A DNA stretch of 64,000 nt from NCBI GenBank assembly GCA_016748015.1, contig JAAOMT010000523.1, positions 186,001 through 250,000 on the forward strand. Reading direction: 5' to 3'. This document shows positions 12,289 to 62,238 of the stretch, piece by piece; the first letter of the stretch is position 1, and each line of letters starts with the position of its first letter. The notes beneath the pieces were generated by a model. It was not told the DNA's origin, ran no database searches, and saw nothing but the letters and a program-made list of their open reading frames with translations. The translations under genes were made by a program, and so were the position numbers. The stretch is from Geosiphon pyriformis uo1. Taxonomy: Eukaryota > Fungi > Glomeromycota.

Positions 12289-13136
12289 TGTTATTCATAG
12301 AATAGAGGAAGTATATTATTATTAGCAAGTAAAGATTAGCCAATCAGAAATAGACATAATAAATGTGGAATTCCAGAATTACTCTCAGAGGAATTGCAGA
12401 ATTCCAGGAATTGCAGAATTCCTGTTGCAAGGAATTGAAGAATTGAGGAATCTCAAATATGTATATATAGCAGTAGCATTAGAAGCAAAAAAGACAGAAT
12501 TAACACCAAGAATCCTTAGCTTAGTTACCACAATCCTCAAATAAATAATTATTCACTATATCAAATTCATTCTTCACTATCAACACTTTATGTTAATAAT
12601 AACTGATACTTAACTATACTGGAACAATAGCTCTTGATTACAGCTATTGATGAGATACTAACTTGCAAATTGTCTTGGCTTATTTCTTATTTTTTCTTTT
12701 ATCTTTTCTTTATTTTCTTTGTTGTCTACTAACTTGATTAAAAAATTTACTCTTGGAAAACTTACGGAGAAATAAAACTTACTTAAAAAATACTTATTCT
12801 TGGAGAACTTACAGAGGAATAAACTTGCTTAAACAATACTTACTCTTGGAGGACTTATGGAAAAACTGACATCAGGAAACAGCACTGGTATACACTTATG
12901 AAAGATATCGTACCAGAAAAATCATCAACCATCAAGCTGAGCAAGCAATCGATAAAACTATGGTTTCAGAAAACTACTGATAAACTGTTACCATTGAATT
13001 TCTGTCCATTATACAAAGAACTCGATTGAAAAACCTTCAGACAAAATACCTTTAGATTATTATCATCATCCATTGCTTTGTGCACCAAGTTACGGATTTG
13101 TTATTTACTTGACACCCCAAAGAATCACCTGTAATA
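12289..13136 (+). repeat. Solo LTR (family A) inserted in gag of element B
   Basis: Homologous to 1762-2626. Termini tgttat/gtaata, TSD atag/atgg. The gag frame of B rejoins across it. Confidence 0.9.
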
Positions 13137-13313: not shown

Positions 13314-14321
13314 TGTTACTGGAGATTTTTGGTCTCTTTTTTTGAATGTTGTAAATGTTGATTTGCTGTGAATTCATGTTTTTTAGAAGTAGTTAAACCT
13401 CTAATAACTGAATTTATCTTCAAATTATTTCCTATAATTTGAACTGCTGGGCTTATAAATGAAATGGCCAATTTTATGCCAGTTATTTTGTATAGTTACA
13501 TTGTAGTAAATGCCAACTTTTTTTCAGGAATTGCTCATCTGGAAGCTTACTAAAATGTGTAGTTACTTTGCTGTGAAAGTCAACCCTTTTACAGAAATTT
13601 TGTCTATAGGCTACCCTAATGATTACAGTAAGAAAATAAAAGAAAATAAAAGAAATGTAAAAAAAATTGAATTCTGTCAAGGGAAACGTTTTCTATTTAG
13701 GCCTGAAGTCACTAACAGTTTACTGAAATTGGTAGCTAATTAATTTCAAAACATTAGTTGAGTTTTGGGAATTTTCCAAGTGCAATAATTAAAAAATTTG
13801 GTTTTTCGAATTATTTGATATTTATTTCTTTTGTGTGTATAGGAATAATTCTAGTGATAAAATCTAAAGTAAGATACATTTTCTTGAAAAGAAAAGCTTT
13901 TTTTTTATATAACTTGTTGTAGTACTAGTCTATGAACTTGCACTTTTTTTTTTTGCTCAAATTTCAGTGAACTAAAGATACATTTTGATGAACTACAAGT
14001 TATTTCACTGAACTATTGATTAATTTGGATGAACTATTCATAATTTCGGCGAATTTCTATAAATTTTGGCGAATTTCATATAAATTTTGGCGAATTTTTG
14101 TAAATTTTGGTGAATTTTAGAATATTACAAAGTTCAGAGTATTGTGTAATTTGATCATCTTACTTTCTGTTGTACTAATTGGATTATTAATTGAATCGTG
14201 ATATGTGATAAATTGATTAAATAATAAGTGATAATTTGGATTGATATTAACATATTAATTACTAATAGAAATTATATGGATAATTTTATGCTAATTAATA
14301 GCTAAAATTCTACTGGTAACA
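13314..14321 (-). repeat. 5' LTR of element B
   Basis: Direct repeat of 3365-4373; differences are mostly transitions. Confidence 0.96.
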
Positions 14322-17300
14322 ATGCTTTGGAAAAAAACCAAGAGTTCTGACTAGTTCTACAGGACATGTAGAAAGCATATAATTTGGTTGGCTGGAAACA
14401 TCTCAAAAATAGTTTGATCAGAATTAAGATGTGTAGCAAATTCATTCGTTTTTTTGGCAATATTCACAATAATCATACCAACCAGGTTATGACAGATTTC
14501 GGTTTGATGGATGGTTATCATGTACATGATGGCCTGGATCAGGAAGAAGTTTTCTCCCTCCTTTTGTGGCAAATATTTTATGATTCTTTGTTGTGTAAAG
14601 TCAAGTATCAGAAAAGTGTATATGGATATATGGGCTGGACATTTTTTCTTTTTTGCTGCTGGCACCTTCGTGAATGATACAATTTGGGTTGGTAGCAGTC
14701 AAAGTGCTACTCAACATATTCTCAATATTGCCAGTAAGTTTTTTCAGATCAATGATATCTTAATTAACAATAACAAAACAGTGGCAATTCCTATCAACAG
14801 CAGGGTCAACAATCCTTCTCTTTCTATCAGTGGTCTACCTATTTCAATCACAAAAAAGAGGAGTCTCATAGATACTTGGATATTTTTCTTTCAACTGAGA
14901 GCCTTTCTAAACCTAGTTTGATGAGAGCGCATTCAAATGTTTGTTTTTTCACTAATTTGGTATTGAAAAAAGCTGTCTCAGATAAACAGTTTTTGTATTT
15001 GGTTTTGGTGGTTCTCCATCCTATTGTAAACTATAGAACACAGTTTAGCTTTGTTTCTGTTGGTGTGTGCAACAAATGGGATGCTTTGATTCACAAGGAC
15101 TTGAAGCTAAAATCTGGTCTTCTATGGGACTTTCCTAGTGATACAATTCATTACCCCTTCTTTTATGGTTTAAAATCTTTTTCACAGTGTTAATTTGAAG
15201 GTAAGATTGCTTCACTTATTAGTTTTGCAAACTCTGATGGGATTTTGGGACACTTGTTTAGTTACAGGTCTTATGACTTATAGATTCTGTGTTAGTGACT
15301 TGTCCATCTATTGGTTTCCTCTGCTCATATTCATGTCAATGTTTCCAATAATTTCTTAGCTGGTATGGTTCACATTTTTTTTGACTGCAAGTTGTCTTTG
15401 GATGGCTCTTTGGCCAGCTCTTTCTGGTTTCATAGTGGAGTACCTATGTCTGTTGTTCTTGGTGAGTCTTTGTTTTGCAAGTTTTTATCTTCTCTCTGGT
15501 GTTATGGTGTCGTCTTTGTGGACCAGCTTTGTAATTGTTATGGTAGTGTTTTTAGCTGACACACCTTTAAGCAGTTGAAGAGACTGGACTCTTGTGGTCC
15601 AGTTTCTGAGTGGTTCAAACTTTTTATTGTATTTCTTGTGGCTTCTTGTTCTTTTTCTTCGACATTGGCTGGTGTTGGCCCTCTGAACATTTATTGTTCT
15701 GATGATTTTGTATCTGTCTGTGATCGTTTTTTCCAGGTTGGTGCTGATAGCTTGTCTGTGTACATGGATGGTTTATTGAAAAATTTGGACATGATTAATT
15801 GTAGAGCTAGAGCTGCTGCCTTTTTTGAGAACATTAATTTGGGTTTGGATGTCAGTGTTCAGGGCTTAGTGTTATCCACTTTGATAGAACTGTAGGCTAT
15901 AGTGTTGGCTCTAGAGTGCATGCCTACAGCTTGTTCTGTTTATCTGTTTTCAGATAGTCAGACAGCTTTGGATGCTTGCAGATCGAAGTCTGACTTAAGA
16001 TGTCCTGATTTTTACAATCAGTGTTGGGTCAAGTGCCGGCATATTAGGAATGTTATTTGTAGTAAGAATTTGAGAGTTAAATGGCACAAAGTTAAGGGCC
16101 ACTCTGGTATTTCAGAGAATGATTATGCCAATAGCCTCACTAATGCTGCATCTCTCTCCGGTTGGTATCTTCCTTCTCATATTAGTGAACATTTTTTGTT
16201 GGCGGATGGTGGTGTTGTTTCTGGTAATTCTAAGCATTTTGTTCATGATGTTTTTCATACTGTTTGTTGTGTGTATTGGGAGGTCGGTTCTGGTTCTGGA
16301 TTTCTAGATGGTGATTTGCATTCAGATGTTGATTGGCTTTGTTCTTTTGGGGTTTGGCACCCTAATTTGCATATGGCCACTGGTTTTACTAGCAGGCTGA
16401 CTGCTGATACTCGAACTTACTTCATGAAGGCTTTGCACTGTCAGCTTTCTGTGGCTGTTCAGAAGCACATTTACAATAAATATTACTCTAGTGTTCTGTG
16501 TCTGTATTGTGGTGAGGTGGAGGTATCTGATCATGTGTTTTCTTGTGTAATTAATAATTCAGGTCATTGTCAGGTCTTGGAATCTTGTATGTCTTCTTAG
16601 AGAGTACTTTCTGGTTTCTCTCTTCCTTCTTTGGATGTATTGCAGCTGTTGTCAACTTGTGCTTTAGACTTTTCAGTTTCTTCAGCTCTTTTCAAGAGTT
16701 TTGTTTTTAATGGATGGCTTTAGAAGATCATTTTCATCTTCCATGATCCAAAAATTGCTGGTGTTAAAATTTTTGATTTTGTGCAATCTATTTGTCTTGC
16801 TTTCAGGAATAACATTTGATTGGTCTGTGCTAAGCATTACACATTTATGGAAAAAAATGGCCTGATTCCTATAGATAACTTGATTTCCATCTTGGTTTCT
16901 GGTTTGGTTTCTGGGTTTTTGACTGGTATAATTAAATTGCTTGGTATTGCTGAAGCTTTTGGTGTCTGTTTTGGCTTTCACAAGTCTTGTTCGTTTTTTT
17001 CAGGTATTGGTGACCTGGTTTCTGTCAATATAAGTGCATAGTGTTGTCCTGACTGGTTCAAGTGACTGGTCACATGTAGAAAATGCATGATTCACACTTA
17101 GTTTAGATTATTTTCTTAATGTATAGTTCTAAATGGTGTTTAGACTTCATTCATTAAATCAATAAAAAAAAAAAATTAATTACCAAAAATTAAATTAAAA
17201 AAAAAACAACAGTTTACAAAAATGCTTTTTTTATATAATATAAACATAGATATTTATTAACTATTAAAAAACACTTTTTTTGGTTTTAAGTAAAAATCTA

Positions 17301-26688: not shown

Positions 26689-29600
26689 TCAAAGAAACTC
26701 AATTCATTTTAATCACTTGTTTATACTCATAGATTTAATATTTACACACTAGAGAAACTTTGTATTTATAATTTAAATAGTTATATATATGTTTGTAATA
26801 ATTAGAGATATAAATCGTATCTAAAAGAAATGAGTTAGTGATATTACATAAAGATCGGAACACCTGTATTTATAGTTGATTATCTTTGATGACAGCTGTT
26901 GTTACCAATCAAAGTATCTTTTTACAAGATTTTTAATAAAAAATATGTTAATTCAATTATTTAAAATAATAAAGTTTTTATTTCAATTAACAAAATTTTA
27001 ATATTCAGATATTTATATGTGCAAAATTAAAGCTTAAATTAAAAATTAAATTTAAAAAACTTTGATTAATCATGTTTAAAAATATTTAACACCATTTATA
27101 CCAGTTTTTTAATTTCATAAATTTTAAATAAGTTAAAAAAATGCTGTATTTTTTATTATATTAAAACTTAAATTATTGTTGTTTTTATAATTTTTTTGTG
27201 TTAAGCTTTTAATTTGGTTAATAATATTTAAATTTGCTTACAATAAATAATTAAACAACTTTAAACCAATTTTACCAATTTTAAATAAGTTAATTTATTA
27301 TTTTTAAAAACTTTAAAGCTTTAACATATTATTTTTTAAATACAAAATTTCTAATTAAGATTATATTAATTTTTTTATTGGTATTTGTATTTGTATATAG
27401 CAATATTAAATCTTTTAAATATTAAAATATTAATAAGTTTTTACAAAATATATTAACAAATTTTAATATTTATTTATTATGTTAATTTTTATTTAGTATT
27501 AATAATACATATAATATATAATATATAATATATATTTTTAATCTTGATTTTATTATATTTATTACATATATTTTTTTAATAAACTTTTTTTTTTATCAAA
27601 ATTCTTTAAAAAAAAAAAAATTTTGAAAAAAAGTTTTTTATTTTGTTTATAATTTTCTCAATATTTTATAAAATACAATTTTATTTATTTAAAAACTTAT
27701 AACTATTAATAATAATAATATAACCAAAAAATTTTGTAGAAAATATTGTACATAGCTTTATTAAAAATAATTTTACTTAAAAATTAAAAAAAAGTAAATA
27801 AAAATATTAAAAACTTGAAAAATAAAACTGTTTTTTTTTAGCTAAACAGCAAAATAATTGTTTTTGATGTTTTTAATAATATAAAAAAATTTTTAAGTAT
27901 ATAATAAAAAATCTATAATAATTAATATTAGTTTTAATATTAATAGTAAAAACAAAGCTTTTTTTAATTCCAAAATAAATACTTTTAAAATAAAAAGAGT
28001 AAATATTAAAAAATTAAAGATGTTATTATTAAATGCAATTTATTATAATACTGAAAATAAAAAAATGTTTTTTTTTTGTTTAAGTCAAATTAGTTTACTT
28101 TTGTAATTATTAAAAAAAATTGAAAACTGTTATTAAAAAAATTTTATATTTTAAATATTGATTTGTTAACTATTAAAAAAAAACTTAATAAAAAATATAA
28201 ATTGTTAAAAAAAAATTATTAATAAATAAGTTTAAAAAAACTTTTATTTTTTTAAAATTTCAAAAAATTTATAATATTAATTAAAAATAAAAAGATATTT
28301 ATAAACAATAATTTCAACAAACTGATTACTATTAACTTAAATTATAATTATTAAAAAAAATTTTATAAATATTTCTAAAAAAGCTGTTTTTTTAACTTTG
28401 TTTAAATTTGGTAAAAATATATTAATTTAATTATAATTAATTAAACTATAATAAAAAACTGTAATAAAAAACTGTAATAAAATTTACCAAATTAAAGCAA
28501 ATTAATTTTTTAGCTTTTAAATAGTTAATATTAATTGGCAAAAATTATGTTTATATTATTAAAATTATTAAAAAGTCCCTGGGAAGTAACGGAATCAGAG
28601 AAAGAACAAGAAAAAAAAGAAAAAGAATCTAAAAATCAAGAATTTACTTACTAGAACCTGATCTCAGAGAACCCAAACATTGAAACCCCGAATTTCCAGA
28701 CTCAGCAAAATCTAAATTTAGAAAATCTGGAAATTGAAACTCCAAATTTTTAAATGCAGCCAAATCAGAACAACCAAAACCCTAACTTAATTAATCAACA
28801 AAACTTATCTCCTGGAATCATTATTAATCAACCACTAGCCGAACCCATATGACAGCCACCCCAACAAAATTATCAGCCACCTGTACCACAACAACAACAA
28901 CAACAAATGGCATATGCACCAATCACGAAGCTTAATAAATTCACCGGCAAAGAAGACAATGCCCAAGTCTAGCTGAATGATGTAGCTAAAGCAATTACAG
29001 CCAATAACTGGGACAATGCTAGAGCCATGTAAGCAATTCCCTACTTTCTTCAGGACACCACTGATGCATGATACCAAAGCCTTACCATTAAACCCTAAAA
29101 TTTTAACAAATTTAAAACCAAATTCTTGAGGTACTTTAATAACAATAATAGCATTAACAAGTTAGCCAACACCTTCACCACAATCAAACAAGAGGAAACT
29201 GAAGCAGTTACCACTTACTTGAGACAGTTCCACAGAAACCTACACCAAATTCAAGCAATCCAAGCTGACTATTTTACCATGTCACAAATTCTAAACCAAT
29301 TCATCTGTGGATTGCATAGTAGTATCCTCCAATATGTATGCCCAATACACCCACAAACTCTCCAGGACGCAGTTACCAATGCATGAGATTTCGAAGCAGC
29401 TGAACTAGAAGCCAATCATGCTCAAGCCGTAAATTTGGTCATGAATGGATCATTTGAATTGGATTCCAAATTGAAACAATTTAGTAATTTAATTAATCAG
29501 AAATTGGAAAGATACTTAGCTGACAATCATACAATATATCAACCACCACAATGACGCAATAATTCTGGAAACACAGATTGTTTTCAGAATCAGTCATGTC

Positions 29601-31939
29601 CAAAATTCTCGACCAATCAACAGTGGCAGCAGGAAATGTGTATTTGCCACTATTGTGGTAAATAAGAACATTTGCAATTTGAATGTCAAAAAAGGATAAG
29701 TGACCAGAGATCAGTTAATCAGTATCAAAACTCTGATTGCTGACTACAAACTCAGAATTACGTCAGTAATTAATCAAACCTAGCTCTATATCAACAAAAT
29801 TATCTACCTATGATGCAGCTGATATATCAAACACCAATGACACAGCAATTATATTCACCTCCAATCTATCAGTCTTCAGTAGCAATTTATCAACTGCAGT
29901 CCTAACCCAATTATTAGCTGCAGTCTCAGGTAAATTATTTGCCCCAACAACATCAAACACCACCACAGAATTTACCTCAAAACAGAACTCAAAGACCAAG
30001 ATTAACACAGCAAAGCTGGAGATCATTGATGGTAGTTCATCAACTGATCTCCAGTTTCATGGCACAACCATCAGGATCTCGACCACAAAATTCGGGCACC
30101 AAGTACACCCAAAACCCAAATTCCCAGAACTATTTAAGTCTCCTGGTTATTTCAGAAGACGCCTCACCCAATAATCTGGAAACCAACCAAAAACAATCAT
30201 TTACCAACAACATACCTCCAGCCACTGTCACCAATGATGAATTACTAGCAGCAATCTTTCTATTTGAACTTGAAAAAAATACACCAGTCCCATTATTCAG
30301 TGGAGCCACTTTTGACACCAAACCAATCACCACTATGTACACTGATGCCAAAGTTAATAAACACTCCATCAAACTGATTCTAGATAGTGAATCAGCTGGC
30401 AGCATTATTACAAAGCAACTCATGGACCAATTAGGTCACTGAGTTGATCACACTGCCAGTGCCAGAATCATAACCACCAATGGAGCAACCAAAACTCCTA
30501 TTGGTAAGATTGATGACTTTTCTATAAAAGTCAATGGCATCATCGTATCAATCAAAGTATTAGTTATGGAAGCCATCTAATATCAAGCACTTATTGGTAA
30601 TGATTGGCTATCTAAAACCAATGCATTGCTTGATTGGAATATGCAGAAGCTTCAAATCAGCCAGAATGGATGACACACACGTGTACCAGCCATATGTGGC
30701 CACTTCACGACCACCAACCCGACAGCACCACTTATAGAGTTCGAAAAAGAAAAAAAAAAACCTACCTGGGAAGCTTATCAAGTGTCCTGGACTGGTGAAG
30801 AACACAACAAGCTGCCACCAGTATCTTCATGGGACAACAATAACAGAAAAAGAAAAAAAAGAGAAAAACTTACTTAGAATGCTGACCAAAACTAGGAAAC
30901 CCATAATGATTAGGACAAATTATCAACAACCTGGGAATGGGAAGAAGATAAAATAAAAAAAAAAGGGAAAAAGAAAGAAGAAAATTCCATACCAACCCCT
31001 ATTCATTCTACATATATGTACACAACACCACAATCAAGCTATCATTACCCAAAACTCATATGTATTGATTGCAGCAAGAAATTGTCATCAATGGGCACGT
31101 GTTGTGGTAACAATAAGGAATACTCAACAGTGACCAAATTCTATTATTACATGTGCATCATAGAACACTTTAAACATCCAAAATGAAAAGAGAAATAGGA
31201 CAATGAACCATGCTTGGCTTGTGGAGAAACTTTTCTGAATGAAGAAATATGGAACAACATTCCTGGGCAAAGAGGAACATGCAACGAATCATGTCAATAT
31301 ACAATTCTCATAAGTGACTGGATAAGAAAAGAAATGCCCATAAACGCTGCCTAAAAACAAGCCATCAAATGTCTGAACAGATGTCCACACGACAACAAAA
31401 TCTGGCAAATGGCACTTGCCAAAATCGAAGGAGCAACTCCAGAAGAAATAAAAACAATCAAAGACAACCCATCTGAACCCATAGAACTTGACTGGGATTC
31501 AGAACCAGTCATAAATCTACTAGATCTGAAACAATTCTATGAACACTACCAGAAATTAGCACCCACTAAAGAGGAACAAGAGCAATAGTTGGAAAAAATC
31601 AATACTCAACTATATGACCATTGTTTAATTTCCTGTGACTTCTAATATTGTAATGAGTGTGATCTCATTTACAATCTACCATCACGTATAATCTACACAA
31701 TCCCAAAAGAAGAAGAACCAATTAGCAGCTGTGCATTGGAATCGGAATCAGTTCCCAATCCCAATTCAGACTCCAACAATGATAACAACAAAAATAACAG
31801 TTTCAGTTCCATTCAAAATGGCAATAACAATGACAATAATTCCAACTCAGATTCAAACTCTGATTCAAACTACGAACAATATATTGTGCTTCCTAACCTC
31901 ACCAAGAAGCAGGAACTAAAATGGTTCAGCGATAATAAT

Positions 31940-32350
31940 GAAGATATTATGCCAGAACACGCACATAATATTAACACAGGGTTTGATCTAAAATATCTGA
32001 AGAAAGATCCCATCAAATTGGAACCACATTTGTGCACTTGCATTGATCTGAAAATAGCACTGGAAATTCCAGCAACAATAATGGTTCAACTAGCATCTAG
32101 GAATAGTTTAGCAAAAAAAAAATTAGCATTAGAGGAGGAATAATTGACACAGGATATGTAGAAAATATCATTGCTATGCTACAAAATAATTCAGAAAAGG
32201 CATATATCATAGATCCAAATGAAAAAATAACACAGACAATATTCCTACCTCTGGTGAAAATAGCTCAATTAGTGTTAGTAGAAAACAGGGAAGAATTAGG
32301 GATTACAGCTAGAGGGATACAGAAATTCAGATCAATAAGTAGAATAGATA
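31940..32350 (+). pseudogene. dUTPase domain within pol of element C
   Basis: TGFDL, ASRNSLA, GGIIDTGYV, EKITQ and RGIQKFRS (decayed motifs I-V). Confidence 0.88.
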
Positions 32351-35300
32351 TACCAGTCAATATGACAGAGGAAGAAATTGTTGACAAAGAAGAAATTATC
32401 TCAACTCATCAAGCAATTTCTATTCTATCCTATAACCAGTATATATTAGCCATAAAAAGAAAAGTGAAGGATCAAGCTTAATTGTTTAAAGCAGAAGCCA
32501 CCATTTGTGAATCAGGAGAGATTGGACTCACCAATCTCTATATCTTAGCCAACAGCCCAAAAAATATTAAAATTTCCATCCACAACACAACTGGAAACGT
32601 CATTGAAATACCAAAGGAAACCATTATTGGATATTTAACCACTAAAGTTGAGGATCAACCATCAAACTACATTTCAGATTTTCCACAACTGTGTAGATAT
32701 ATAGACATTACATTACAAACCATCTATGGACGAAGTAAATGCTATCTGCTCTAACTAGAACAATTGGAACAGATAAATATGGGAAATCTAAATCCACTCC
32801 AACAGATGCAACTAAAGATGTTACTCAACAACTTCAATAACATCTTTGCTAACAAAAATGAATTTGGCCACACCAACATTATCCAGCATCAGATCAAAAC
32901 TGGAGATGTGATGCCAATTAAACAAAGAGCATACAGAGTACCACCAGCTAGCCATAAGATCATTCATCAAGAAATCAATTGGATGCTTGACAATGGGCTA
33001 ATTCAGTCATCAATGAGTCCATAGTTGTCATTAATGGTACTAGTCCAGAAGAAGAATGGAAAAATTCACTTTTGTGTAGATTACTGGAAATTGAATGGAG
33101 TAACCAAGGGAAACAACTATCTAACTCCAAAAATCCAAGAACTATTCGATGCTTTTGAAAGAAACAAATGGTTTTCGATACTGGATCTAGATAGTGGCTA
33201 CTAACAAATAGCCATGGATCTAGCTGACAAAGAAAAAACTGCATTTACAACAAGAAAAGGGAATTTCAAATTTGAAGTTATGCTATTTGGCTTGATAAAT
33301 GCTCCAGCAATATTCCAATAACTCATGGAAATTGTATATACTGGACTACTATGGAAATCAGTAGTCATATACTTAGATGACACCAATGTATTCTCAAAAA
33401 CATTTGATGATTATCTACATCACCTTCAACAGGTGTTTGAAAGACTAAGAAGAGCTGGATTGAAACTAAATGCAATGAAGTGTTTCTTTGGAAAAACTGA
33501 ACTCAAGTTTTTGGGACATGTTATAAGCAAAGATGATATCAAAATGAATCTAAATAAGATCGCAATAGTAAAGAACTTTTCAGTACCAACAAACTTGCCA
33601 GAACTAAGGGCATTTTTGGGATTTGTAGGCTATTATTGCCGCTTTATCAAGGACTTTTCCAAACTAGCTCAGCCACTTCACCAGCTACAAACTAAGAATA
33701 TAAAGTATGAATGGACTGAAGCTCAACAAAAAACATTCGACACATTGAGAAGAAAGCTTATTCAAGCTCCAGTGTTGATGTATCCAGACCACAGCAAACC
33801 ATTCATCATCACTACGGATGCATCAGGTCAAGCATTGAGAGCAGTACTATTGCAGAAAGGACCAGATGGAAGAGAACATCCAGTAGCTTATGCCAGTAAA
33901 AGCTTAAGTCCAGCTGAAAAAAACTATGGAACTCCAGCACTGGAACACTTAGCAATCTATTGAGCAGTCATAAAATGGAGAAAATACTTGAGCCAAAAGT
34001 TTGAAATATACACAGATCACAAAGGACTGACTTCAATTCAGAAACAAAAATTTGCAGACAATTGTCATGCCAGATGAAAAATAGAACTCTCATCATTTAA
34101 CTATACAGTACATTATAAAAAGGGAAAAGATAATAGAAATGCCAATGGATTGTCATGAATGAGACAAATCTAAAAACATTCCAACCCAAAAATATAACAA
34201 AAGATGAATATACAAAAATACCAACAACTACAACATTATATAAAGACTCAATTGTTCAAGGAAAAATTATCTCAAAAAGAACAAAAAGACATAAAACAAC
34301 AATCCAAATATTTTATCAACCATCAAAATATACTTTACTGGAAAAACAAAAGAAATCCAGATCAACCAACCAAAGTAATCACAGAACCAGAGAAAGAAAC
34401 AATATTATTTAATATGCATTCAGACCCAACAGCAGGGCATTTTCACAAAGAAGCAACCATGGAAAGAACCAGAAAAAGATACTATTGGCCATCAATGTAT
34501 CCAGACATCATCTAATACGTGCAAAATTGTGATGCTTATCAGAGAAGAGGAAAAGCAAGACCAAGTAAACCATTAAGACCAATCAAAGTGAGACAACTAT
34601 TTGATCACATTGAAATTGACTTAGTTGGACCATTAACAATCACCAGCAGAGACAACAGATATATTGTAGTAGCCATGGACTATCTTACCAAATGGCCAGA
34701 AGCAAAAGCCATTCAAAGAGCAGATGCAGAATCCATTGCCAAATTCGTTCATCAAGATTTGATTTGTCAATATGGATGTCCAAAAAAACTATTATCAGAT
34801 TAAGGAACTCACTTTGTGAACAGAACATTAGTAGAATTAAGTCAAAGATTTGGAATTAAAAGACCATTATCATCACCATATCATCCACAAATCAATGAAC
34901 TAGTTGAAAGATTCAATAAAACATTGTGTGAAGCAATTGCCAAAATCAGTCAAAAAAATCAAAACGAATGGGATTTGTTCATATCATTAGTATTATTTGT
35001 TTATCAGACAATGAAGCAAGATACCACACAAGCAACACTATTTGAACTAATATATGGTAGAACAGCAACATTACCAGTTGAGATAGAGATCAATACATAT
35101 CCAACTGAACCAATAACAGAAGATAATTTTCAAGAAACATTGTTAAGAAGAACATATAACTTAATAGAAACACTAGAAAACAGATGACAAAAAGCAGTTA
35201 ACAACATACAAAGATCACAAGAGAAACAAAAAAAGAGACATGATAACCAACTATCAGACAAACCAATTGAATTCAAGATTAGAAACAAAGTACTTTTACA

Positions 35301-35639
35301 TCATACTAAAGCGAAAAAACAATAGAGTGGAAAATTTGATCCCAAATGGGATGGACTATTTCACATTGAAGAAATTCTTGGAAATGGAGCTTACAAATTA
35401 AGATGGAACAACAAAATCTTAACCAAAGCAGCACATAATAATCGACTGAAACAATATTACCAGATAGCATCATCATCTACCAATAACATTTCACAATTAG
35501 GAGTACAAAGAATACTAGTTCAACCAGATGAGATTCCATGAGATCTAGAACCAATTATAGTTATTGAACCAAACACGTAAAATCAAACAATCAAAAAGTA
35601 TATAAAGACACAGTATACGCGACAAAAGCAATCAAGAAA

Positions 35640-36274
35640 ATGGAAATACCAGATCATATTCACACTATAGCTCAACAACTATTTCAGGCCTTAAGTTAAT
35701 AACAGTTAGACATGGAAATTATCATTAACAACCAAACAATTTGCTATCGAAACACTAAAAGAAAGACAAAGAACACACCATATTAGTGGGTACCAAAGAA
35801 TGATAAAAACTGGTCAGATAACATAATAGAAAAAGTAAAGAACATGTTTGAGAAAATATCTATTATAGCACCAACAGAAAAACTTACAAAAGAGAATTGG
35901 AAGCAATAAACAAAACAACTTTCAATATCATATTGTTACTACCAATTAGGTTAGAAGTTGAATATTCAGGAGTTGTATATTAACAAATCTAAGAGAATAT
36001 TCAACCAAGACATAATACAACAAATTAAAGAATTTATTGGAAAGAAAACAAATTCAATACTACATATTAGAACAATGTACCGACTACACAACATATTTCA
36101 AAACTATCCAAAAATACTGTTACACTCTGACATGGAAACCATAACCATTAACCAATGGGAAAAATGAACAATACACACGTGGAAGACATGAGAAACAGAA
36201 TCAAACAAACAATACTTGAAAAAGAAGTATTAAAATTAATTCAAAACAAAGATTTCAATAAAGCTTAATATTAA
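35640..36274 (+). pseudogene. Extra ORF of element C
   Basis: MEIPDHIHTIAQQLFQAL...TMYRLHNIFQNYPKILL...DFNKA*Y*. Confidence 0.75.
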
Positions 36275-36288: not shown

Positions 36289-37129
36289 TATTACTCATAG
36301 AAAAGAAAAACAGATATAGAAAAATAGTACACCAATAAGAGAGTAGTAGTTAGCACGTGAGCACATTGCTCAGCAATGTGGAGCAATGTCAGAAATCACA
36401 GCACATCACTCAGCAATATGAAGCAATGTCAAAAAAATATGGCATATTGCTTAGCAATATGAGCATTGCTTAAAAAATTATAGCACATTGCTTGGGAATG
36501 TGAGCAATTTTGTAGAACCCAAATTATGTATATATAGCAATAGTATTAAAAGTAGAAAGAACAGACCTTTCAGTTTAGATTTAATCTAAGCAATCTTCTA
36601 TTCACAAATATCAATAAATAATTATTCACCATTTCAATCCACCCTCCACTATTAACACTTCATGTTAATAGTAAGTGATATTTAACTACATGAGAACAAT
36701 AGCTTTTGATTATGGCTATTGATAAGATACTAACTTGCAATTGCTTTTGTTTATTTCTTTATTTTTTCTTTTATTTCTTTTGTTTTGTCATTTCGTTGGT
36801 TTTACTAAACTGATTAAAAATTAAGTGCTGAGTTATTAATGTCAAGGATAGCCTGGTAAAAAACCCCAAAGGAAGGGTATAGAAATTGAGAATTTAAAGA
36901 TAGCTTACCAGAAGGACATCTCTGCCAAGATTACTGGCCACCATGCTGAGAAAGAAATTTGATGAAATTGCAATTCTAGGAAGCTATAAGAAAGACAACA
37001 CTTGAATCTCTGTTCATTATACAAAAGATTCCACAACAAAACCTTCAGATATTGACACCAGAATACCAATCCAGCACCAAGTTACAGATTTGTTATTTGA
37101 CTTAAGATTCCAAATAATCATCTGTAACA
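36289..37129 (+). repeat. 3' LTR of element C
   Basis: tattac/gtaaca termini. R-U5 homologous to family A, but U3 carries CACATTGCT-N-AGCAATGTG palindromes. Confidence 0.92.
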
Positions 37130-40100
37130 CCACAGAATTATAAGCCTTTTGCATGTTTTGCAAAACCAGCCAGAATTCATGGTTCTTTTCCAAAGCATCC
37201 TCTACTACAGAGCTGACAACATAAATAAGAGATTGTATAGTCATATTTTTTAAAACAAAAAAATTGTCTTTATAAAAAACATCAAAGATGCTGTATGCAA
37301 ATGAAATTCTATCAGACAGAATCTTGAAGAGAATTTTATGAACTGTTTTAATCAAAGCAATAGAGTGAGTATTTGTGAAAACACTCTTCCATTTATATGG
37401 TTTGGGAATTATCGAGACCCAAACCTTTTTCTAAGAACTGGGCACAAATTCATAAGATAAACAAATATTTAAAAACACCAGAAGCATATCTAAAACTAAT
37501 TTGTTGTAATGTTTCCAGGACTTATTTGAGATACCAGAAAAACCAGTGGCTTTGCCATTGAGTAGAATGAAAGTCATACTAAATAATTCATTAAAGCCAA
37601 CTAGACACATCACATCTGAAAAAACATCATCAAAAACATGCTCTAGCAGTTAATATTAATAAGAACAGTCACTAAAAATATCAGAAACCATAACATATTT
37701 CTTAGTCCAGTCTTCCATTATCTGGTTTTAACCAAATCAAGTTTCAGAATCAATTTATCACCAATAATTAGATAATTCAATTCTATCTTATGGAAAGGAC
37801 ATTTCAATATGTTCCTGATAGTATAACTTTTATTAGAAGCAAAACTTTCCATCTGCCTATCAATAGCAGACTTAATACTTAACTCTTTAGCTTTTAAAGA
37901 TTTAGCAAGCTTGAAAGCATGATAAAACTTTCTTATGTCAAAAAAAACAGATCTCATATAATCAAAATTTGCACCAAATTCCATCAGAGCTTAAACAGTT
38001 GAAGTCTTATTAGCATTTAGAACTGCTCAGCTGTTTATTAAAAATGCAAACCCAACATTGTACTTCTTATAAGAAGCCTTAACAATCCTTAAAATCAAAA
38101 CTTCTAATTTGTGAAATTTAAAAAATTTCTTAGTAAAAACACCATCAAAGCTCTTGAACTATTTTTTCTTAAATGTTTTTCTAGCCAAAAAAATCATCAT
38201 CTTGTGAACAATATTCTACATAGCATCCAGATCTGAAAATTTATTAGAAGAGATAAACTTATTAGAGAACAAGACCATATTAGCTATTAAAGCATTCTTA
38301 AAATTAGCTTATTTTGTCTTATTAGCATGTTTGATGTCAAACTTCCAATGGTCTTTATTAGTCTGTTTGCACAAAAGATTTAGATGTATATTCAATAGGC
38401 CATTCAAACCAACAAAAACAAAAATGGCTTGGTAATCTATATTAAAGTAATCACTAATATTCTTAATCTCATAATCTACTATTGCATTAACCAAATTTGA
38501 AGAGACAAACACATAATCAATTGTTTTGAACACACCTCTGAAATTCTTCTATGTAAACAACTTTACAAGCAAACTACCAACTAATAAATTAACTAGGCTC
38601 AAATCAAGGCATCTCTTGAAACTAGCATATTTACAAGAATCATTTTCATTGAAATTGCCACTTAAAATAACAAAAGATAATTTATTTATAGTCTTAACAA
38701 CCAAAGAGTTAATTTTACCAGTTTGAAAAAACCAAACTACCAAGGAAGTTTCAGCATAAAACCCCAAAATTAAAACAAAAAGTTTATTCTTGAAAAACAA
38801 CTTAATAGCCAGGCATTTCAGAAACTTTATATACATGTTTTGCCAAAAAAAATTTAAGACAATTACAACACCAGCATTCAGATATCCAGAATCTACACCA
38901 GAAGTAAACACTTAAACGCCATCAAATTTGTTAACAATTTATGGGTGGATCTTTCCTTTTAGCTTTGTTTCTGTGAAAATAAAAATCAAATTGTTTATGT
39001 TTTCATGCCAATAAATAATATTTACCTGTTTAGTAAGATTGTTTATTTCTCTAATATTACATGTTGTAATTTTTTATACCAGACCACTTATTGAGAAAAA
39101 GGTTTAGAAAACACATTACCAGTTAAAACCAAATTATTAAAACATACTGATAGATTTAGCACTGAAACAGCAAGTTTTTCAAGCATGTTTTCTAATCACA
39201 TCACACTAAAAGAAGCAGAAGAGCCCAAAACCACAACAGTCTTATTACTAGTAATCTTACTTAAGCCTTTTTTCATTACTATATTACCCATCTGATTCTG
39301 TAATACAGAGGTTACCAACAGCTGATGTTTAGGACTAGACTGGAAAACTGCCAGCATGAGTAATTCCAACTTTTTAGCCAACTTACTAATTTGTCATGTA
39401 AGACTGATAAAACTGTTTTTAATGATAACCAAACATAATTCTAATTCATTAATGACAGGCAAGAGAAGTTTTATCTCTAAAGAAAAACCAGGATTAGCCA
39501 AACCAATATATGCAGGAAAAAGGGAAAAAGAAGATCCACTAACAATCTTTATCCAAAAAGCACCACCAAAAAAAACAAAGCAAATAATAGGTGCTAAACA
39601 TTTGGCATAAATGGTTGCCAGTCTGCTTTTATCTTTATCAGATAGTATCTTACAAAAAGAAGCACCAAGAGAAATTTTCTCACTGAAAGCACAACTTAAT
39701 GATGTATGCCCTATTTTTTTACACTTAACATATTTAAAAAAGCCCAGCTGAGACCAATGCAGATTGGCACTTTTTAAAACTGAAGTAGTTCCTATGATGG
39801 CATTAAGAAAATCAGCAGAGTCAAAACACACCACAACACATTTAGATTGGGCATATATAACTGGATAACAATTAATAATGCAAGTCTTGTTACCAACTAA
39901 TCCAATGAAGTTCCAGATATCATGTGCATTTGTTCTTATCAGCAATATGTACAATAATGCTTTATGACTATTTCTTGCATTCTATGATTCTTTGTCCATA
40001 TTAGCCTTAGCAACACAAGCTGTATCTTTTCCAATCAAGATAGACCACTTTGCTGCAGCCAAATTGGCTTGATCTACTTGCTTAAATTTTATAATAGCTT

Positions 40101-40990
40101 TCTGCCAAAGACCTACCAACTGCATTTTGATTGACTTAATAACACCAAACTCAGATAGTGCAGCATGTACAGTCTTAATTGATGTTCTAACTGGAATATT
40201 TTTCACCACCACAGTCCAATTTGAATGTCCAGAAGATTTTTTGAGATCAGTGTTTACTAGAATCTTTACATTTTTTGCTATATTAAAAGCTTAGACCAAA
40301 CTCAATTTGGAAGTAAACATCACTTGGATAATCCCAGAAAATTTTAAAGGAGTAGAGACCTCTTTAAAACTATTGATTTTTGAAAATAATTTCCTAACTG
40401 CCACCAGCTTTTCTTGAGAGGATTTTCCAACCATCTTATTCAAACCAATATCTAAAGCAAATGATTTTTAACTGAAATGTCAACCAGAATTTTCAAGAGA
40501 AAAGAAAGTGTTAAGAGAATATCCAACAAATTATTATCACTATTATTAACCAAAAAATTAATTTTTCTCAGTGGTTTTCTCAATGCTCTTTTGGTCAGTA
40601 CTTTTGAATTCTTAAGTATTTAATCTGAATCTTCTCTAGTGAAAGCACCATCTTTACTATAATCAAAGCTGATTTCTTTAACCAAACACTTTTCCTCCAT
40701 ATTTACACTATTAGACTTGATAGTATCACTAGTCTCAAAATTCTATAAACAACCATTCAGCTCTTTAACAGAAATCTTTCTATTACTAATACTATTTTCC
40801 AAAGCACCACTTTTTTTTTTCTTTTTAAACACAACAAACTTGACACCAGTACCAAAACCAGAATTTTTAAGAGCCTTTTTCATGACAGTAATATTAGAGC
40901 CAACAATGACTTTGTAATCAAGCAAAAATAGTTTGGATTTATTATACTAAATGATAAAAAACTCCTTTCAAAAAAACTCTTTGACTCTTT
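37130..40990 (-). mobile_element. LINE 5' part: ORF1 (RRM + CCHC) ~40920-39088, then ORF2 APE endonuclease and start of RT 39091-37130
   Basis: ORF1 'VVKNIPV...EFGVIKSIKM' and 'KCKKIGHTSLSC'. APE 'TCNIR', 'TETKL', 'SGNFNE', 'IDYVF'. RT 'VVEDALEKNHEFWLVLQNMQKAYNSV' is cut by element C. Confidence 0.9.
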
Positions 40991-42036
40991 TTTGGAAATT
41001 TGAAATAAAGAAAAGAAAGAAGTTTTTTTATTTTTTATGTTTTTTTTAATATATTTTTTATTTATTAATAAATTTTTATTATAATAATTATAAAATTTTG
41101 TAATTAATATTTATTTGAATATTAATAAAGCTTTTTAAATAATTTTGTTTTACAAATATTAAATTTTTTTCAAAATACAATTAATATATTAGTAAATATA
41201 AAAATTAAAAATTGATTTTATTAATATATAAATATATAATAATTCTAAATTTTTCTAAAAATAATTATATAATACTTATATAAATAAAAAATAATTTGTT
41301 TTTATATATTTTATTTTTACTACTTTGATAATTATTATAAATAATAGAGTAACTAGTCACATATAAAAAAACATGAGCTAATACTTAATCTAGAATCTTA
41401 TATAATTGTATTTTTTTAGGTAATAGTTAAATTGTACTTGTAAAATACAATAAAAATAAATAAATAATATTTTTTAAAAAAATTTTTATAACTTAATAAT
41501 ATTAATTAATTAATTAATTAATTTAAAAATTTGTGTATTTAAAATTTTTTAATAAAATTTTTTATATAAAAAAACAAAATTTCAAAAATTTATTGGTTTT
41601 TAATAGTTAATATTAATATTTTTTGTTTTTTTCTAATGTTTTTTGTTTTTTAATAGGCTATTCAATTTTAATAAGTTAATTTTATGCTTATAATATGTGT
41701 TTTTATTAAATTATTTTATAATATTATATTTTTAATAAGTTAACAATAAATAATTATAAAAAAAAATTAATATTATATTAATAATTATAATTAAAAATAA
41801 TAAATTTAATAATTATATTTTTGGTATTTATAGATATAATTTATAATTTAATAAATTTATATATTTAATTTTTATTTTTTATTTTTAATAATATAAATTA
41901 TTTTTTTATTATTGTTTTTAATAGTATTTAAAAAATATTAAAGATTTTTTAAGTAAATAATCTTTATTTTAATGTTTAATACTATTATTAAAAATTAATT
42001 AGATTATATTAAAATTGTATTCTAATATTTACATAA

Positions 42037-43027
42037 TATTATAAGTTAACTTAATAAAGTATAATAGTAATGTTTAATGTTTTATATTTAAATTATAAAA
42101 CTTAAAAAAATTTTTTTATTATAAAAGATAAATCAGAATTATTAATTTCTAAAGATTTTTAATAAATGTAAATTTATCTGTAAAGTTTTTTAATTATAAA
42201 ACACAGAAATATGGTCTAATTGTTTGTAGTTTAATGTATGTGAACTATTTTTTTGAGTTAATTAAATATAATTGTTAGAGTTTGGCATTGTTTTTTTTGC
42301 TTTTCTGATAAGCTAACAAAATAAAGTTAATATTTAAACTTAAAAAAAGCTTCTAGACAGTCAATTTTTTTAATGTTGCCACTTTACTAAAAAAAAAAAA
42401 GAAGAAAAAAAGAAGAAAAAAAAAATTGAAAATAAGAAAAAAAAGAAAAGAAATTAATATTATTAATTGTTATAATTAAGAACAATTAATCCAAGTTATT
42501 AAGATTTTAAAGCTGTTTATGCTAAGAGTATCTGACTTAAAATAAAAATAAAAACATAATTAATTTGATTTTGACAACACAAATTTTAAGATTATATACA
42601 AGTAGATTAAATTATATTTTTATTTAATAGAGAATAAAAAAATATAAAAAAAATAAGATAAAAAGTTTTTTTTTAAGTTAGAAATAAAATATGTTTTAAG
42701 AAAATTAGTTTTTGTTTTCTGTTTTTTTTTTATTTGCTAAAAACTTCTTGTTTTTTATACATATTTTCTAGTTTTATAAGATTGCTTTTAATTATTTATT
42801 ATTACTAGTTATTACTTATTACTTTTGTTATTGCTTTATTTTTTATACTATAACTTGTTATTCTATATTATGGCTAGTTATTTTGTGTTATTGTGTGTTA
42901 TTTTGTATTATTCTGCATTATTACATATTATTTTGTGTTATTTTGTATTATTACACTTTTTTATTTTATTATATATTAATTATATTTTTTTTAATATTTT
43001 TAAATTGGTTTTTTTACTTAAGTAACA
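42037..43027 (-). repeat. Hypermutated solo LTR (family E)
   Basis: Collinear with 53722-54800 (e.g. agacagtcaattt...tgttgccact, tatgctaagag). Ends gtaaca, TSD ataa/ataa. Confidence 0.8.
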
Positions 43028-53008: not shown

Positions 53009-53721
53009 TTTGGTGCTCTCTGTAAGGTTTAATCTAACAGAGATTTAGCACTAACAGCAACCATCTAAAACAGTGGCAGAATCAGAAAAAATAGGAACCA
53101 ATCACTTGAGATTTGCAAAATTTTTATTCCAGCATTATCATATTCATCTCAAATTAACAAATAGTAATTAGCTAACAGAATCTGCTTTTAATTATTACAT
53201 CAACAAAAAAATTGCATACTACTTGGGAAATCAAAGAGATCCAAAATCTGCTTTTAACAATTTCTTTAGTAAGTTACTTTAAAGCACTACACTTCTATAA
53301 AACTATTTATTTGCACCTCTAATTACAAAAATAAACAGAGAAATTGAAAAATACACCAAGCAATGATTTTCTATTATCTTTGAAGACAAAAAAAAAGAAA
53401 ATTACAAATACTAACAGAAACACCAAAGCCAATACAACCACTTACTTGTAAAAAACCAAGAGTAAATCTACTAATTAATTCATCATACTATCACACACCC
53501 AGAAGTACTATCAATATAATATTAATAGGTATGTCCACAACAAACACAAGAACACTATTAGCTAAAATTCTATTTCAAAGTAGACAAAAAAAAGCTAAAC
53601 TATTGGAAACTTATGGTAATTACTTTAAGGAATTTAATTTGTGACCAAATATGCCATCAGAATATTAATTACTATTACTACTACCAGATTTTTGAGCCAC
53701 TAGTCTTTGGAAATTAACCAA

Positions 53722-54800
53722 TATTATGAGTAAACTTGGTAAGTAATGAAGATGGTAATATTTGGTGCTCTCAATTATTGGTAATATGTCTTCCATGTAA
53801 TTTTGTTGACTTAGTCTCAATTATCAGTCTCTGAAGGTCTATTTCTGGATGTGAATTTACTTGTTAAGTTCTTTGATTATAAGGCACAGAGTTTGTCTTT
53901 TGTCAATTGCAATGTCTTCCATAAATATAAGCTTTCTTTTCTGAGCTAACGAGTGCAGTTGTTAGGGTCTGGTGATGTTTTTTCGCTCTTTTGATAAGCT
54001 AAAAAGATAATATTAATATCTAAAACCTAGGAGGAGCCTCCCTCTTTTACTAGGCTATCACGAAGTCTATTTCTAGACAGTCAATTTTACTATGTTGCCA
54101 CTCCACAAAAAAAAATAAAAAAGAAAGAAAAAGAAAAAAAAAGAAAAAAAAGAAAAAAATAAATTAGTATTATCAATCACCATGATCAAGAGTGATTGGT
54201 CCAAATTGTTAATAGTCTAAGATAGTTATGCTAAGAGGATCTGTTCTAAAACAAAGGTATGAAACAACGATTTATTCATGTAAATTTCACACAGTTTGAG
54301 AACATGAATTCGTAATTTTGATTTCTTTGATAATTGATTTATTTCAGAAGATGAATATGGAAATATAATAACTGAAGAGGAGTGATAAATATTTGTTTCT
54401 TGTCTAGTAGTTCATATCTATCTGTCTTTTTTTTTTTCTACAACTACTTGCTTTTATATATTCTTTTGGTTTTACAGGATTGCTTCTGATTGTTTCATTA
54501 TTGCTAACTATTGCTTTTGTTATTTCTATTATTGCTTCATTCTTCTATGTTATTTCCAGTTATTTTATGTTATAATACGTTATCTGGTGTTATTATATGT
54601 TATTCTGTGTTGTCCTTCGTTATAACACATTATTTGGTGTTATTACATATTATTCTGTGTTATTCTATGTTATAATGTATTATTCTATGCTATCCTAAGT
54701 TATAATGCATTATTCAATATTATTGTGCACTATTCTGTGTTATGTCACATTCTGGTCACATTTTTTCTAACTTCAAATTGGTTTTTCTACTTGGGTAACA
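53722..54800 (-). repeat. Solo LTR (family E) inserted in gag of element D
   Basis: tattat.../...ggtaaca termini, TSD ccaa/ccga, gag resumes on the right. tattctgtgttat tandem array 54540-54760. Confidence 0.88.
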
Positions 54801-57800
54801 CCGATTTTGAAGAAGAAAAAAATAGCAATCAGGAAATTAATACTTAAAATCCAATCTAAAAAAATCTGAAAATTCAAACTTCAATTGTTCCAACTCAGCA
54901 AAATCAGAACAATCCAAACACCATTCTTATTGTTTCCTAAAACTTTCAATAATTGTGATCAATCTACTATCAGTTTCACCAATTATTAAACAGCAACAAC
55001 AACAGCTGCCACCATCTACTTAGTCACAATCTCAACAACCAAACCTATCACAACAACTGATTACAGCACCAATGATCTATGCACTAATTGCCAAACTAGA
55101 AAAATTTACTGGCAAAGAAGATAATGCACAAGTATGATTAAACAATGTTAAAAAAGCCATTATAGCCAATAAATAAAACAATGCCAGAGCACTACAAACC
55201 ATACCATATTTTCTACAGGATATTGCTAACTCATGGTATCAAAGCTTGGCAAATAAACCACAAGATTTCAATGCTTTTAAACTTGAGTTTCTAAGATATT
55301 TTAGTAACAATAACAGCATTAACTGCCTGGCCAATATACTTACTACTATAAAACAAGAAGATGCCAAAGCAGTCACCACTTACTTGAGACACTTTTGTTG
55401 AAATCTGTGCCAGATTTAAGTGATTAATGCCAACTATTTTACAGCACCACAAATCTTGAACCAGTTTATCCATGGTCTGTACAGTAACATCATCCAATAC
55501 ATATATTTATTACATCTAACCAACCTATAAGCAACAGTTATATACACTAAAGACTTTGAATCAGTAGAATTTGAAGCCAATCATGCCCAAGCCATAAATC
55601 TAATGATGAATAGATCATCTAAATTGGACTCCAAGCTAAAACAAATCAGTGATTCCATTAATCAGAAAATTGAGAGATATTTAGTTAACAATTAGACAAT
55701 TTATCAACTTTCACAATGTTATGACAATTTCAGAAACTCCAGTTGTTCTCAGAATCAGATGCATTTCTTATCATCAGTTAATCAACTGTGGCAACAAAAG
55801 ACACATATGTGTTATAATTATAATAAACAAGGCCATATAAGAACTAATTGCTGTGTTAAATTTAATAATAACTATTTATGATCAGAAAATTGATATCAAA
55901 GTCCTGATTACAGATTTCAAATTTCGAATCATTATCCAAATTAGAATTAGTATTAATTTTATTACACCCAAATAATGTATTAACTAATTTACCAACCTCC
56001 AGCATCCATAATATATTAATTGCAGCCACAAATCATCTATCAACTTCAACAACTTCAAACATTGCCACCAATTCCAGCTCAGACACCTAGAAACCAATGG
56101 CTGAAAATGACCCAAAACTGGAAATTGGCAATAATTGTTTATCAGCCAATTCCAAACTCCTAAAACCAATTATTAGAATCATGCTAGCAAAGTTCAGAAA
56201 CTAGTTACACCCAAAACCCAAATGCCCAATACTATTTAAGTCTTCTAGTTACCCCAGAAGACATCCAACCCAATCATCAGAAAACCAACCAAAAGCCACT
56301 CACCAACAATATACTTCCAGCCACTATTACAAATAACAAATTACTAGCTGCAATTTTTTTTTTGAACTTGAGAAACCAACAATAACTCTATTATTTAGTA
56401 GAACTGCCCTAGACACAAAATTCATCACTGTGATATACACCAATGCTAAGATTGATAGTCAGTTTATCAAACTGATCTTAGACAGTGGTTCAACAGGCAG
56501 CATTATCACATCTCAACTTATAGACCAATTAGGTAGCCAAGTTAATTGCACTGTTAGTGTCAGAATAATAACAGTTAATAAAGCAACTAAAACCCCTATT
56601 AGCAAAATTGATAACTTTCCATTTAAAGTCAACAGTATTGTTATACCCATAAAGGTTTTTATTATAGAAGCCACTCAGTACCAAGCTCTTGTTAATAACA
56701 ACTGGCTATCTAAAACCAACATCATACTCGACTAAATCACCCAAGAATTGCAACTAAGCCAGAATAGTCAAAACATACAGATACCAGCCATTTGTGATTA
56801 TTTCAAGACCAATACTAATGAACAGCCACTAATTAAGTTCAAAAGAAAAGAAAAAAAACCTACATGGAAAATGTATCAGGTATGATGAGCTGAAAAAGAA
56901 CACAACAAATTGCCATTAGTATCTGTCTGAGAAAAAAAAGGAAAGGGAAAAGAAAAAAAAAAAACTCCCCCAAGCAAACATCTTTACATATACACCATAC
57001 ACCACTACAATTCAACATCAGCCAAATTATTGTTAACCAAAATTAATTTGCATTAATTGTGGTAAAAAATTGTTCATAATAGACATATGTTGTGGTAATA
57101 ATAAAGAATAGCCAACTGCAACCAAGTTTTACTGTTACTTATGTATTTTTAAACACTTTGGACGACTTAAACAACAAAAAAAATAGGACAATAAACTATG
57201 TCTGGCTTGTGGAGAAATTTTTTTAGATAAAGAAATGTGAAATGATATTCCTGAAAGAGAAAAAACATGTAACAAATTATGCCAATATATGATTCTAATC
57301 AGTAATTGGATATGCAAAAATGCATTAATAGATACTGCCTAGAGAAAAATAATAAAATACTTAAATAGTTGTCCACATAATAATAACAAAATTTGGTAAA
57401 TGGCCCTCACCAAAATTAAAAGTGTGTCAAAAGAAGAAATAAAAAAAATAAAAAATAATCTGCCAGAACTTATAGAACTTAATTGAATTCTGAATCTCAA
57501 TATTATCTTTAATGCTATGAACTCAGAACAATTTCATAAACATTATCAAAACTTAGCACTTACTAAGAAAGAGCAAGAGCAATGTTTAGAGCAACTAAAC
57601 ATTCAACTATATGATTACTGTTTAATTTCATGTGATTTTCAATATTGTAATGAGTGTGACCTTATTTACAATTTATTACTACACATGATTTACACGATTC
57701 CAGAAGAAAAAAAACCAATCAGCAGCTGTGTATCAGAATTAGAATTGAAATTCAATTCCAATTCAAACTCTAATGATGATAACAAAAACAATGATTTCAG

Positions 57801-61595: not shown

Positions 61596-62238
61596 ATGGA
61601 AATATTAAACTATATTCACACCTTAGCTTAACAATTATTTTAGGCCTTAACCCAACAACAATTTCCATGTTCAATTGTTGTCAACCACCAAACAATCTGC
61701 TATTGAAACACCAAACAGAAAAAAAAAACAAAAAATACACTATATCAGCGACCACAAAACCAAACAAGAAACTGGTCAGATAAAATAGTAAAAAAAGTGA
61801 AAAGCACTTTTGGGAAAATACCCATTATGATTCCAACTGAAGAATTCACAAAAAAAAAATTGGAATCAGTAAATGGAACAACTTCTAATACCATATTGTT
61901 ATTATCAATTGAGACAAAAATCAAATATTCAGAAATTATATCTTAATAAATTTAAAAGAATATTTAATCCAAAAATAATATAGAACATCAAAGACATTAT
62001 TGGAAAGAAAACAAATCTGATACTACACATTAGAACAATTTATTAATTACACACAAAATTTCAAAACTACTCAGAAATATTGCTATATCTCAACATGGAA
62101 ACAATAATTATTAACCAGTGAGAGAGAATGAACAACTTACAAATCGAAAATATAAGAAACAGAATTGAATAAACAATATTAGAAAGAGAAGTTATGAACC
62201 TAATTCAAAATAAAAATTTTAACAGAGCTTAATATTAA
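61596..62238 (+). pseudogene. Extra ORF of element D
   Basis: MEILNYIHTLA*QLF*AL...NFNRA*Y*. Same position and upstream TATA as in A and C. Confidence 0.7.

Follow-up and report, generated by a model that had tools for sequence, protein, structure and literature searches.

Fungal Ty3/Gypsy retrotransposons with a dUTPase in pol have been described; in PosPlaTy3-5 of Postia placenta, the enzyme lies between protease and reverse transcriptase (RT), and the main text of that description reports Cys motifs only for the Gag CCHC knuckle, with no mention there of a module ahead of the dUTPase (PMC2864245). In betaretroviruses, the zinc-finger nucleocapsid protein (NC) is fused N-terminal to dUTPase; the available text of one study describes this fusion as protease-resistant, and according to its authors it places the enzyme at polynucleotides while reverse transcription proceeds (PMC1802613). 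Here we analyse a 64,000-nucleotide stretch (the window) of the fungus Geosiphon pyriformis (contig JAAOMT010000523.1, positions 186,001 to 250,000), from a genome in which long terminal repeat (LTR) elements are put at 41.2% in the available text of one report (PMC11952901). Ty3/Gypsy elements in this window share the dUTPase slot of PosPlaTy3-5 and carry, ahead of the enzyme, a Cys-rich module of which our literature search, made mostly without subscription papers, found no description. A dUTPase between protease and RT is thus already known, but the module is an unclassified predicted zinc-domain family that adds to the accessory repertoire of Ty3/Gypsy pol.

A Cys-rich module between protease and dUTPase

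Alignment to P0232, an undecayed metagenomic homologue, locates a module of ~210 amino acids (aa) between protease and dUTPase in three element copies, called B, C and D. It lies at 31049-31663 (+) in copy C, at 57037-57660 (+) in copy D, which belongs to the same family, and at 9794-9201 (-) in copy B, which represents another family and has about one-third identity to C. A single frame in copy C runs from gag through protease, a linker, the module and an Asn/Ser-rich linker to the start of the dUTPase, and a single frame in copy B joins protease, module and dUTPase start; in copy D a frameshift lies directly upstream of the module. The large Cys-rich insert reported at these places by the initial annotation, which was made from the sequence alone, is therefore real: the module is in frame and Cys-enriched beyond chance, with 17 Cys in the 211-aa module of P0232 compared with none in its protease, none in its dUTPase and two in 186 aa of RT. 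The interval marked in copy C, 30680-31920, corresponds to the entire gap from the protease end (30670) to the dUTPase start (31913). Three of the four motifs quoted there occur literally in copy B; the fourth, HCLISCDFQYCNECDL, mixes the readings of C and D, copy C having a stop at the Q and copy D a Y at the first position.

Examination of the module shows a recurring layout of C-x2-C-x24-C-x2-C, C-x2-C-x19-C-x3-C, ~100 aa predicted to be helical, and C-x2-C-x3-[C/S]-x4-C-x2-C. In copy C (all on the + strand), the first of these patterns forms finger 1 with a basic tail, a predicted treble clef (31049-31190; Cys codons at 31061, 31070, 31145, now Tyr, and 31154), and the second forms an acidic finger 2 (31193-31297; Cys codons at 31211, 31220, 31280 and 31292). 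A modelled helical bundle with connecting helices follows (31298-31597), and then site 3 (31613-31660), which is poorly modelled and whose first Cys is now Tyr in C. The module as a whole is net acidic (about -13 in P0232), with finger 1 plus tail net basic in 15 of 18 rows and finger 2 acidic in 17 of 18. Its flanks are more variable. The Trp/Lys/Glu-rich linker before it (30671-31048, +, in C) is not conserved across families, and the acidic, Asn/Ser-rich linker after it (31670-31912, +), which the initial annotation had correctly noted in C and D, has a long form specific to their family, with 84-85 aa and 25-40% Asn plus Ser, compared with 42-47 aa and 12-17% in B and P0232.

In the homologue P0232, an open frame of 1064 aa runs from the protease through the module (residues ~341-551) and the dUTPase into part of RT. 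On the same 19-kb contig lie gag, RT-RNase H, integrase and two further genes, and there is an additional in-frame break inside RT. P0232 is one of two ENA proteins among 20 matches that we checked, the other 18 being from G. pyriformis; these were taken from 150 listed of the 402 matches at E <= 0.001 that a profile search found among 1.84 billion representatives. Recognising the module cleans up annotation, because hundreds of G. pyriformis 'hypothetical proteins', going by these 402 matches, consist of fragments of it. The named homologues are all labelled Geosiphon pyriformis (99 of 99 for copy C, and all 120 listed of 237 for copy B), and a third G. pyriformis family, E, also has the module. 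Families B, C/D and E together with P0232 are the four lineages compared here; their modules are about 37-48% identical, and their linkers do not align. Module scans of metagenome contigs and viral contigs gave no match, and searching by words with the P0232 module recovered nothing but that module; distant relatives escape word-based and pattern searches, so the full extent of the module's distribution is beyond their reach. A protease-pattern scan yielded two loci, the uninformative L002 and L001 (metagenome, 947-1855), whose protease and dUTPase are 34% and 48% identical to those of P0232. The gap between these enzymes in L001 is 166 aa long, acidic and with one CxCxxC cluster, and the module is absent; in module-bearing elements the gap is 330-440 aa. 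Because L001 has a related protease and dUTPase without it, the module is lineage-restricted. L001 sits on a long branch in the protease tree, and that tree settles neither gain nor loss.

Conservation, selection and predicted fold

CpG observed/expected ratios are 0.02-0.28 in the transposable elements (TEs) of the window and 0.93-1.06 in its genes, and the two LTRs of copy B, 92% identical, are 74 transitions but 4 transversions apart, which makes deamination artefacts a real risk. The behaviour of the Cys columns was examined in a cross-lineage alignment of 86 of 353 proteins, picked for coverage; P0012 and P0106, which match window copies C and B, respectively, in the aligned stretches, were kept in the column counts. 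Across the four lineages, Cys accounts for 772 of the 843 residues in 12 core columns, with 42 Tyr and at most two Arg, and P0232 keeps the core Cys in full. The non-Cys core positions in B and C are TAT, the G-to-A product of TGT. Within family C/D, 16 Cys-rich columns contain 769 Cys and 70 Tyr, with Arg and His together below 5%, and a further five columns contain a mixture of Cys, His, Arg and Gln, the pattern expected from CpG decay of an Arg codon; family B has 16 Cys-rich columns (1279 Cys, 88 Tyr) and three mixed ones. Deamination of Arg codons can thus account for five columns in C/D and three in B, but not for the 16 Cys-rich columns in each. The initial annotation had named unconserved Cys, or Cys that are mostly Arg-to-Cys products, as findings that would speak against its proposal; what we find is 12 Cys held across four lineages that decay to Tyr.

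Selection was gauged from transversions only, as the ratio of nonsynonymous to synonymous differences (pN/pS). Between C and D this ratio is 0.16 for the module (P = 2e-8), 0.17 for the protease and 0.22 for RT; between C and B the values are 0.47, 0.28 and 0.28. Purifying selection has acted on the module as it has on protease and RT. Because the Asn/Ser linker scores low too (0.13, on 10 changes only), the cross-family conservation of Cys is the stronger evidence. The module is a conserved, selected multi-Cys unit that most likely binds zinc: of the multi-zinc module first proposed, the conserved, multiple Cys are borne out.

An AlphaFold model (predicted local distance difference test, pLDDT, 71) contains a treble clef like half of a LIM domain, a four-Cys finger 2 that packs against a helical bundle, and a third site of poor model quality, giving three predicted zinc sites. 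Residues 1-44 are modelled as one finger, helices follow Cys pairs 2 and 4, and the bundle (residues 81-140) is modelled at pLDDT 83-91. Of the computational approaches that the initial annotation had suggested, structure prediction models finger 1 with a treble-clef fold, which that annotation had listed, and profile searching of the window copies, 11 and 10 alignment members and P0232 gave no Pfam family at cut-off. Every match in the fold search was below significance (Foldseek best E 0.11). PHROGs matches for P0353 were weak (an integrase family, E 4e-4, and a family of unknown function, E 0.003), and the best PDB sequence match, the histone-fold subunit HapE (E 0.04), came from a mixed B plus C/D profile and was set aside, the histone fold being absent among the listed fold matches.

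Comparison with known zinc-finger classes was made on four representatives: P0232, P0243, P0003 and P0110. The zf-CXXC pattern consists of two CxxCxxC motifs with a basic surface; the net acidic module has none of these motifs in P0232, P0243 and P0003 and a single one in P0110 (family B), and it has no Pfam match to this class. The C4HC3 ligand pattern of PHD, the C2HC-x2-C4 double finger of LIM and the C3HC4 cross-brace of RING are absent from all four, and no His column is common to all families. A PHD-like Pfam family, zf-HC5HC2H, matches over finger 1 in one E-family protein (E 0.0019; 18.8 bits against a cut-off of 29.1), but on the trimmed domain this falls to E 0.15, in two of ten members; PHD-like (VAL1/2) and ZZ fingers are also among the weak fold matches. 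The finger 1 model superposes on LIM half domains with a root-mean-square deviation of 1.5-2.1 A over 37-38 residues, and there is a weak sequence match to the CRIP LIM domain (E 0.16). The module nevertheless lacks the LIM His, and its fingers are 18-22 residues apart rather than the two of LIM. GATA fingers are spaced C-x2-C-x17-20-C-x2-C; Cys pairs 2 and 3 fit this in all four representatives, but the model groups the pairs otherwise, the spacing of 24 in finger 1 is longer than that of GATA, and there is no Pfam GATA match. The TRASH/MYM(FCS) spacing, C-x2-C-x19-22-C-x3-C, is fitted by finger 2 in all four, with a negligible profile match (TRASH_HVO_1752_C, E 8.9, in one of ten).

Possible roles of the module

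Wherever both flanks can be read (copies B, C and D; families B, C/D and E; P0232), the module is directly upstream of the dUTPase, 42-85 aa away where measured. Trimeric dUTPases have five motifs, and all five are present in P0232 and P0110. The reading that we favour, possible though somewhat short of probable, is that the module is an accessory N-terminal extension that tethers the dUTPase inside the particle. By analogy with the betaretroviral fusion, module and dUTPase would stay joined, without a protease cut between them, and the module would hold the enzyme to nucleic acid or Gag within the particle, in which dUTP would have to be cleared for reverse transcription. The likely nucleic-acid contact would be finger 1 and its basic tail, with the acidic remainder contacting basic proteins. 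In betaretroviruses the NC zinc knuckles are joined to dUTPase at the gag-pro frameshift. The likeness to the NC-dUTPase of Mason-Pfizer monkey virus lies in zinc fingers placed N-terminal to a trimeric dUTPase; in the available text on that system the fingers are those of Gag nucleocapsid and the fusion is basic (PMC1802613). The Geosiphon module, by contrast, is a separate, all-Cys unit downstream of the protease, unrelated in sequence and different from a CCHC knuckle, and the comparison is one of analogy only. Several points weigh against a tether. The module is net acidic, unlike NC; a CCHC knuckle is already present in gag; L001 has a dUTPase but no module, so the enzyme can do without it; fold searches gave no significant match; and being neighbours in one polyprotein is no proof that two parts work together. 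If the dUTPase is tethered in this way, fungal retrotransposons reached the betaretroviral NC-dUTPase solution independently.

The integrase and its target sites bear on several alternatives. Chromoviruses have a chromodomain fused to the integrase C-terminus; the Geosiphon module lies instead upstream of RT and is separated from the integrase by a stop. As first annotated, the integrase ends at LEPIIII without a chromodomain, 72-73 aa past a GPY/F-type motif in all four of copies A, B, C and D, and Pfam gave no chromodomain match in the C integrase or the A tail. An in-frame TAA lies right after RNase H (C, 34171-34173, +; D, near 60100, +; B, near 6790, -), integrase appears to be a separate open reading frame in these three copies, and RT-RNase H and integrase are called as separate genes on the P0232 contig. 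Because the stop lies between RNase H and integrase, a covalent link between module and integrase is unlikely. The missing chromodomain and the stop also set these elements apart from dUTPase-bearing fungal Ty3/Gypsy elements such as PosPlaTy3-5, as that element is described in the available text (PMC2864245).

Paired target flanks read ACGC/ATGC for B (3361-3364/14322-14325) and ATAG/ATGG for a solo LTR (12285-12288/13137-13140); single flanks are TCGT for A (2627), CCAC for C (37130), GCAT for an element at 62846 (62842) and GCTC for D (52184). At five of these six readable insertions, the flanking 4-mer has CG or a decay product of CG at its centre, compared with 23% in the background (P = 0.003). 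CpG density per kb is 0-2 in AT-rich spacers, 29-33 in genes and an estimated 21-33 in TEs before decay. Because the spacers are nearly CpG-free, a CpG-choosing integrase would hit either genes, where insertions are likely purged, or TEs, and nesting then needs no reader, since CpG targeting and CpG-poor spacers suffice. Nesting in a TE, claimed initially for every insertion, holds for copies A and B, for both the solo LTR and the element at 62846, and for C on its right side; the left flank of D is not clear, and the 5' LTR of C is lost. Ginger1 transposases are Gypsy-integrase relatives with TGT-type termini and 4-bp CpG-centred duplications, as in the Geosiphon elements; in the available text they duplicate CCGG (75%) or CCGT/ACGG (24%) and lack gag and pol, and hence the module, so such an integrase can choose CpG without it (PMC2836005).

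The initial annotation had seen in the module a chromatin or methyl-DNA reader that explains nesting, and this explanation is not supported: zf-CXXC and PHD patterns are absent, the module has a net acidic charge, RT, RNase H and an in-frame stop separate it from integrase, and a CpG target suffices. More broadly, a module that recognises methylated CpG or the histones of heterochromatin and directs integration to TEs in place of the missing chromodomain would fit the CpG-centred LTR ends, the sub-threshold zf-HC5HC2H match and the weak PHD-like and ZZ fold matches, and its acidic surface could bind a histone tail. We consider such a reader improbable, because LIM and RING patterns are missing as well, P0110 having one CxxCxxC only, the zf-HC5HC2H match fades on trimming, a chromodomain-like covalent link is not expected with integrase behind a stop, surviving CpG-targeted insertions would fall in TEs anyway, and the available text on Ginger1 gives CpG-centred duplications in 99% without pol (PMC2836005). 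The stop could be accommodated if a released module bound methylated CpG or heterochromatin and docked non-covalently on the separate integrase, steering CpG-centred, nested insertions in trans; this we regard as very doubtful. A role on DNA could also be that of a protease-released factor, a LIM-like adaptor or treble-clef DNA binder that acts on host or element DNA to counter silencing or drive LTR transcription. This is unlikely, if less so than a reader: the fold matches are all below significance, selection within family C/D is as strong as on the enzymes, and pol-level products are usually scarce for a regulator. If the module acts on chromatin in trans, it would offer a means of targeting or of countering silencing that did not appear in the literature searched.

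The separate integrase frame allows a further possibility, quite unlikely in our view, in which the acidic module serves as a dock through which integrase, translated on its own, would enter the particle. The stop in B, C and D, the separate gene calls on the P0232 contig and the acidity of the module are consistent with docking, and a free integrase would need a route into the particle; however, the stop may be read through, and the gene calls may partly reflect decay, given the break inside RT. A functionless passenger, that is, a captured fragment or spacer kept only as an open frame, would agree with the lack of the module in L001 and with the low pN/pS of the low-complexity linker, by which that measure does not single out the module. 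It is nonetheless the least credible of these readings, as the 12 Cys and several Trp, Tyr, Gly and Pro positions are common to four diverged lineages whose linkers do not align, and the helical core is confidently modelled.

Element copies and neighbouring features

The window is fungal DNA with host genes, including glucose-6-phosphate dehydrogenase, APP1 and a bZIP gene, AT-rich spacers and decayed TEs. The elements show Ty3/Gypsy LTR features, namely TG...CA ends, a primer-binding site and a target duplication (in copy B), and the order protease-RT-RNase H-integrase after gag is found by Pfam in copy C and on the P0232 contig. Element B has LTRs at 3365-4373 and 13314-14321, and element D (+) has LTRs from 52188 and from 62252; the sequence adjoining the 5' LTR is common to both. 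Copy C (+) comprises a gag with a Ty3 capsid-like region and a decayed CCHC knuckle near 29650 (28580-30301, start approximate; Ty3_capsid and Retrotrans_gag Pfam matches), aspartic protease (30326-30670), a dUTPase broken by a frameshift near 32105 (31913-32343; Pfam and P0232 alignment), RT with RNase H (33046-34098; Pfam), integrase with H2C2, rve and a GPY/F-SH3 tail (34201-35580; Pfam) and a 3' LTR (36289-37129).

Between dUTPase and RT of copy C, 32344-32760 (+) encodes ~140 weakly conserved aa with a weak Spuma_A9PTase match at the end, and on visual inspection it looks like a degenerate dUTPase-like beta domain. Copies C, A and D have, between integrase and 3' LTR, an extra sense open reading frame of ~200 aa (35640-36260, +, in C; about 1114-1682 in A and 61596-62218 in D) with no Pfam match; copy B has a stop-poor frame there without a match to it, and the P0232 contig has genes of 136 and 234 aa at this position. 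The 3' LTR of D is interrupted by a further LTR element (62846-64000), whose minus strand resembles the extra frame. Element B carries, within its 5' untranslated region, a solo LTR of the A/C/D type (12289-13136, +). Judging from their translations, the sequences that host A, B and C look like RNase H-bearing long interspersed nuclear elements, with a Pfam match for RNase H only; they lie at 2627-3364 plus 14322-17000 (+), where that match occurs, and at 37130-41000 (-). A 1.9-kb AT-rich stretch at 49736-51616 matches its own reverse complement at 64% and may represent either low-complexity sequence or an ancient hairpin element. Finally, D has a 5' leader of ~1.8 kb (53009-54800), part of which matches an isolated 620-bp stretch at 42351-42975 at 68%.
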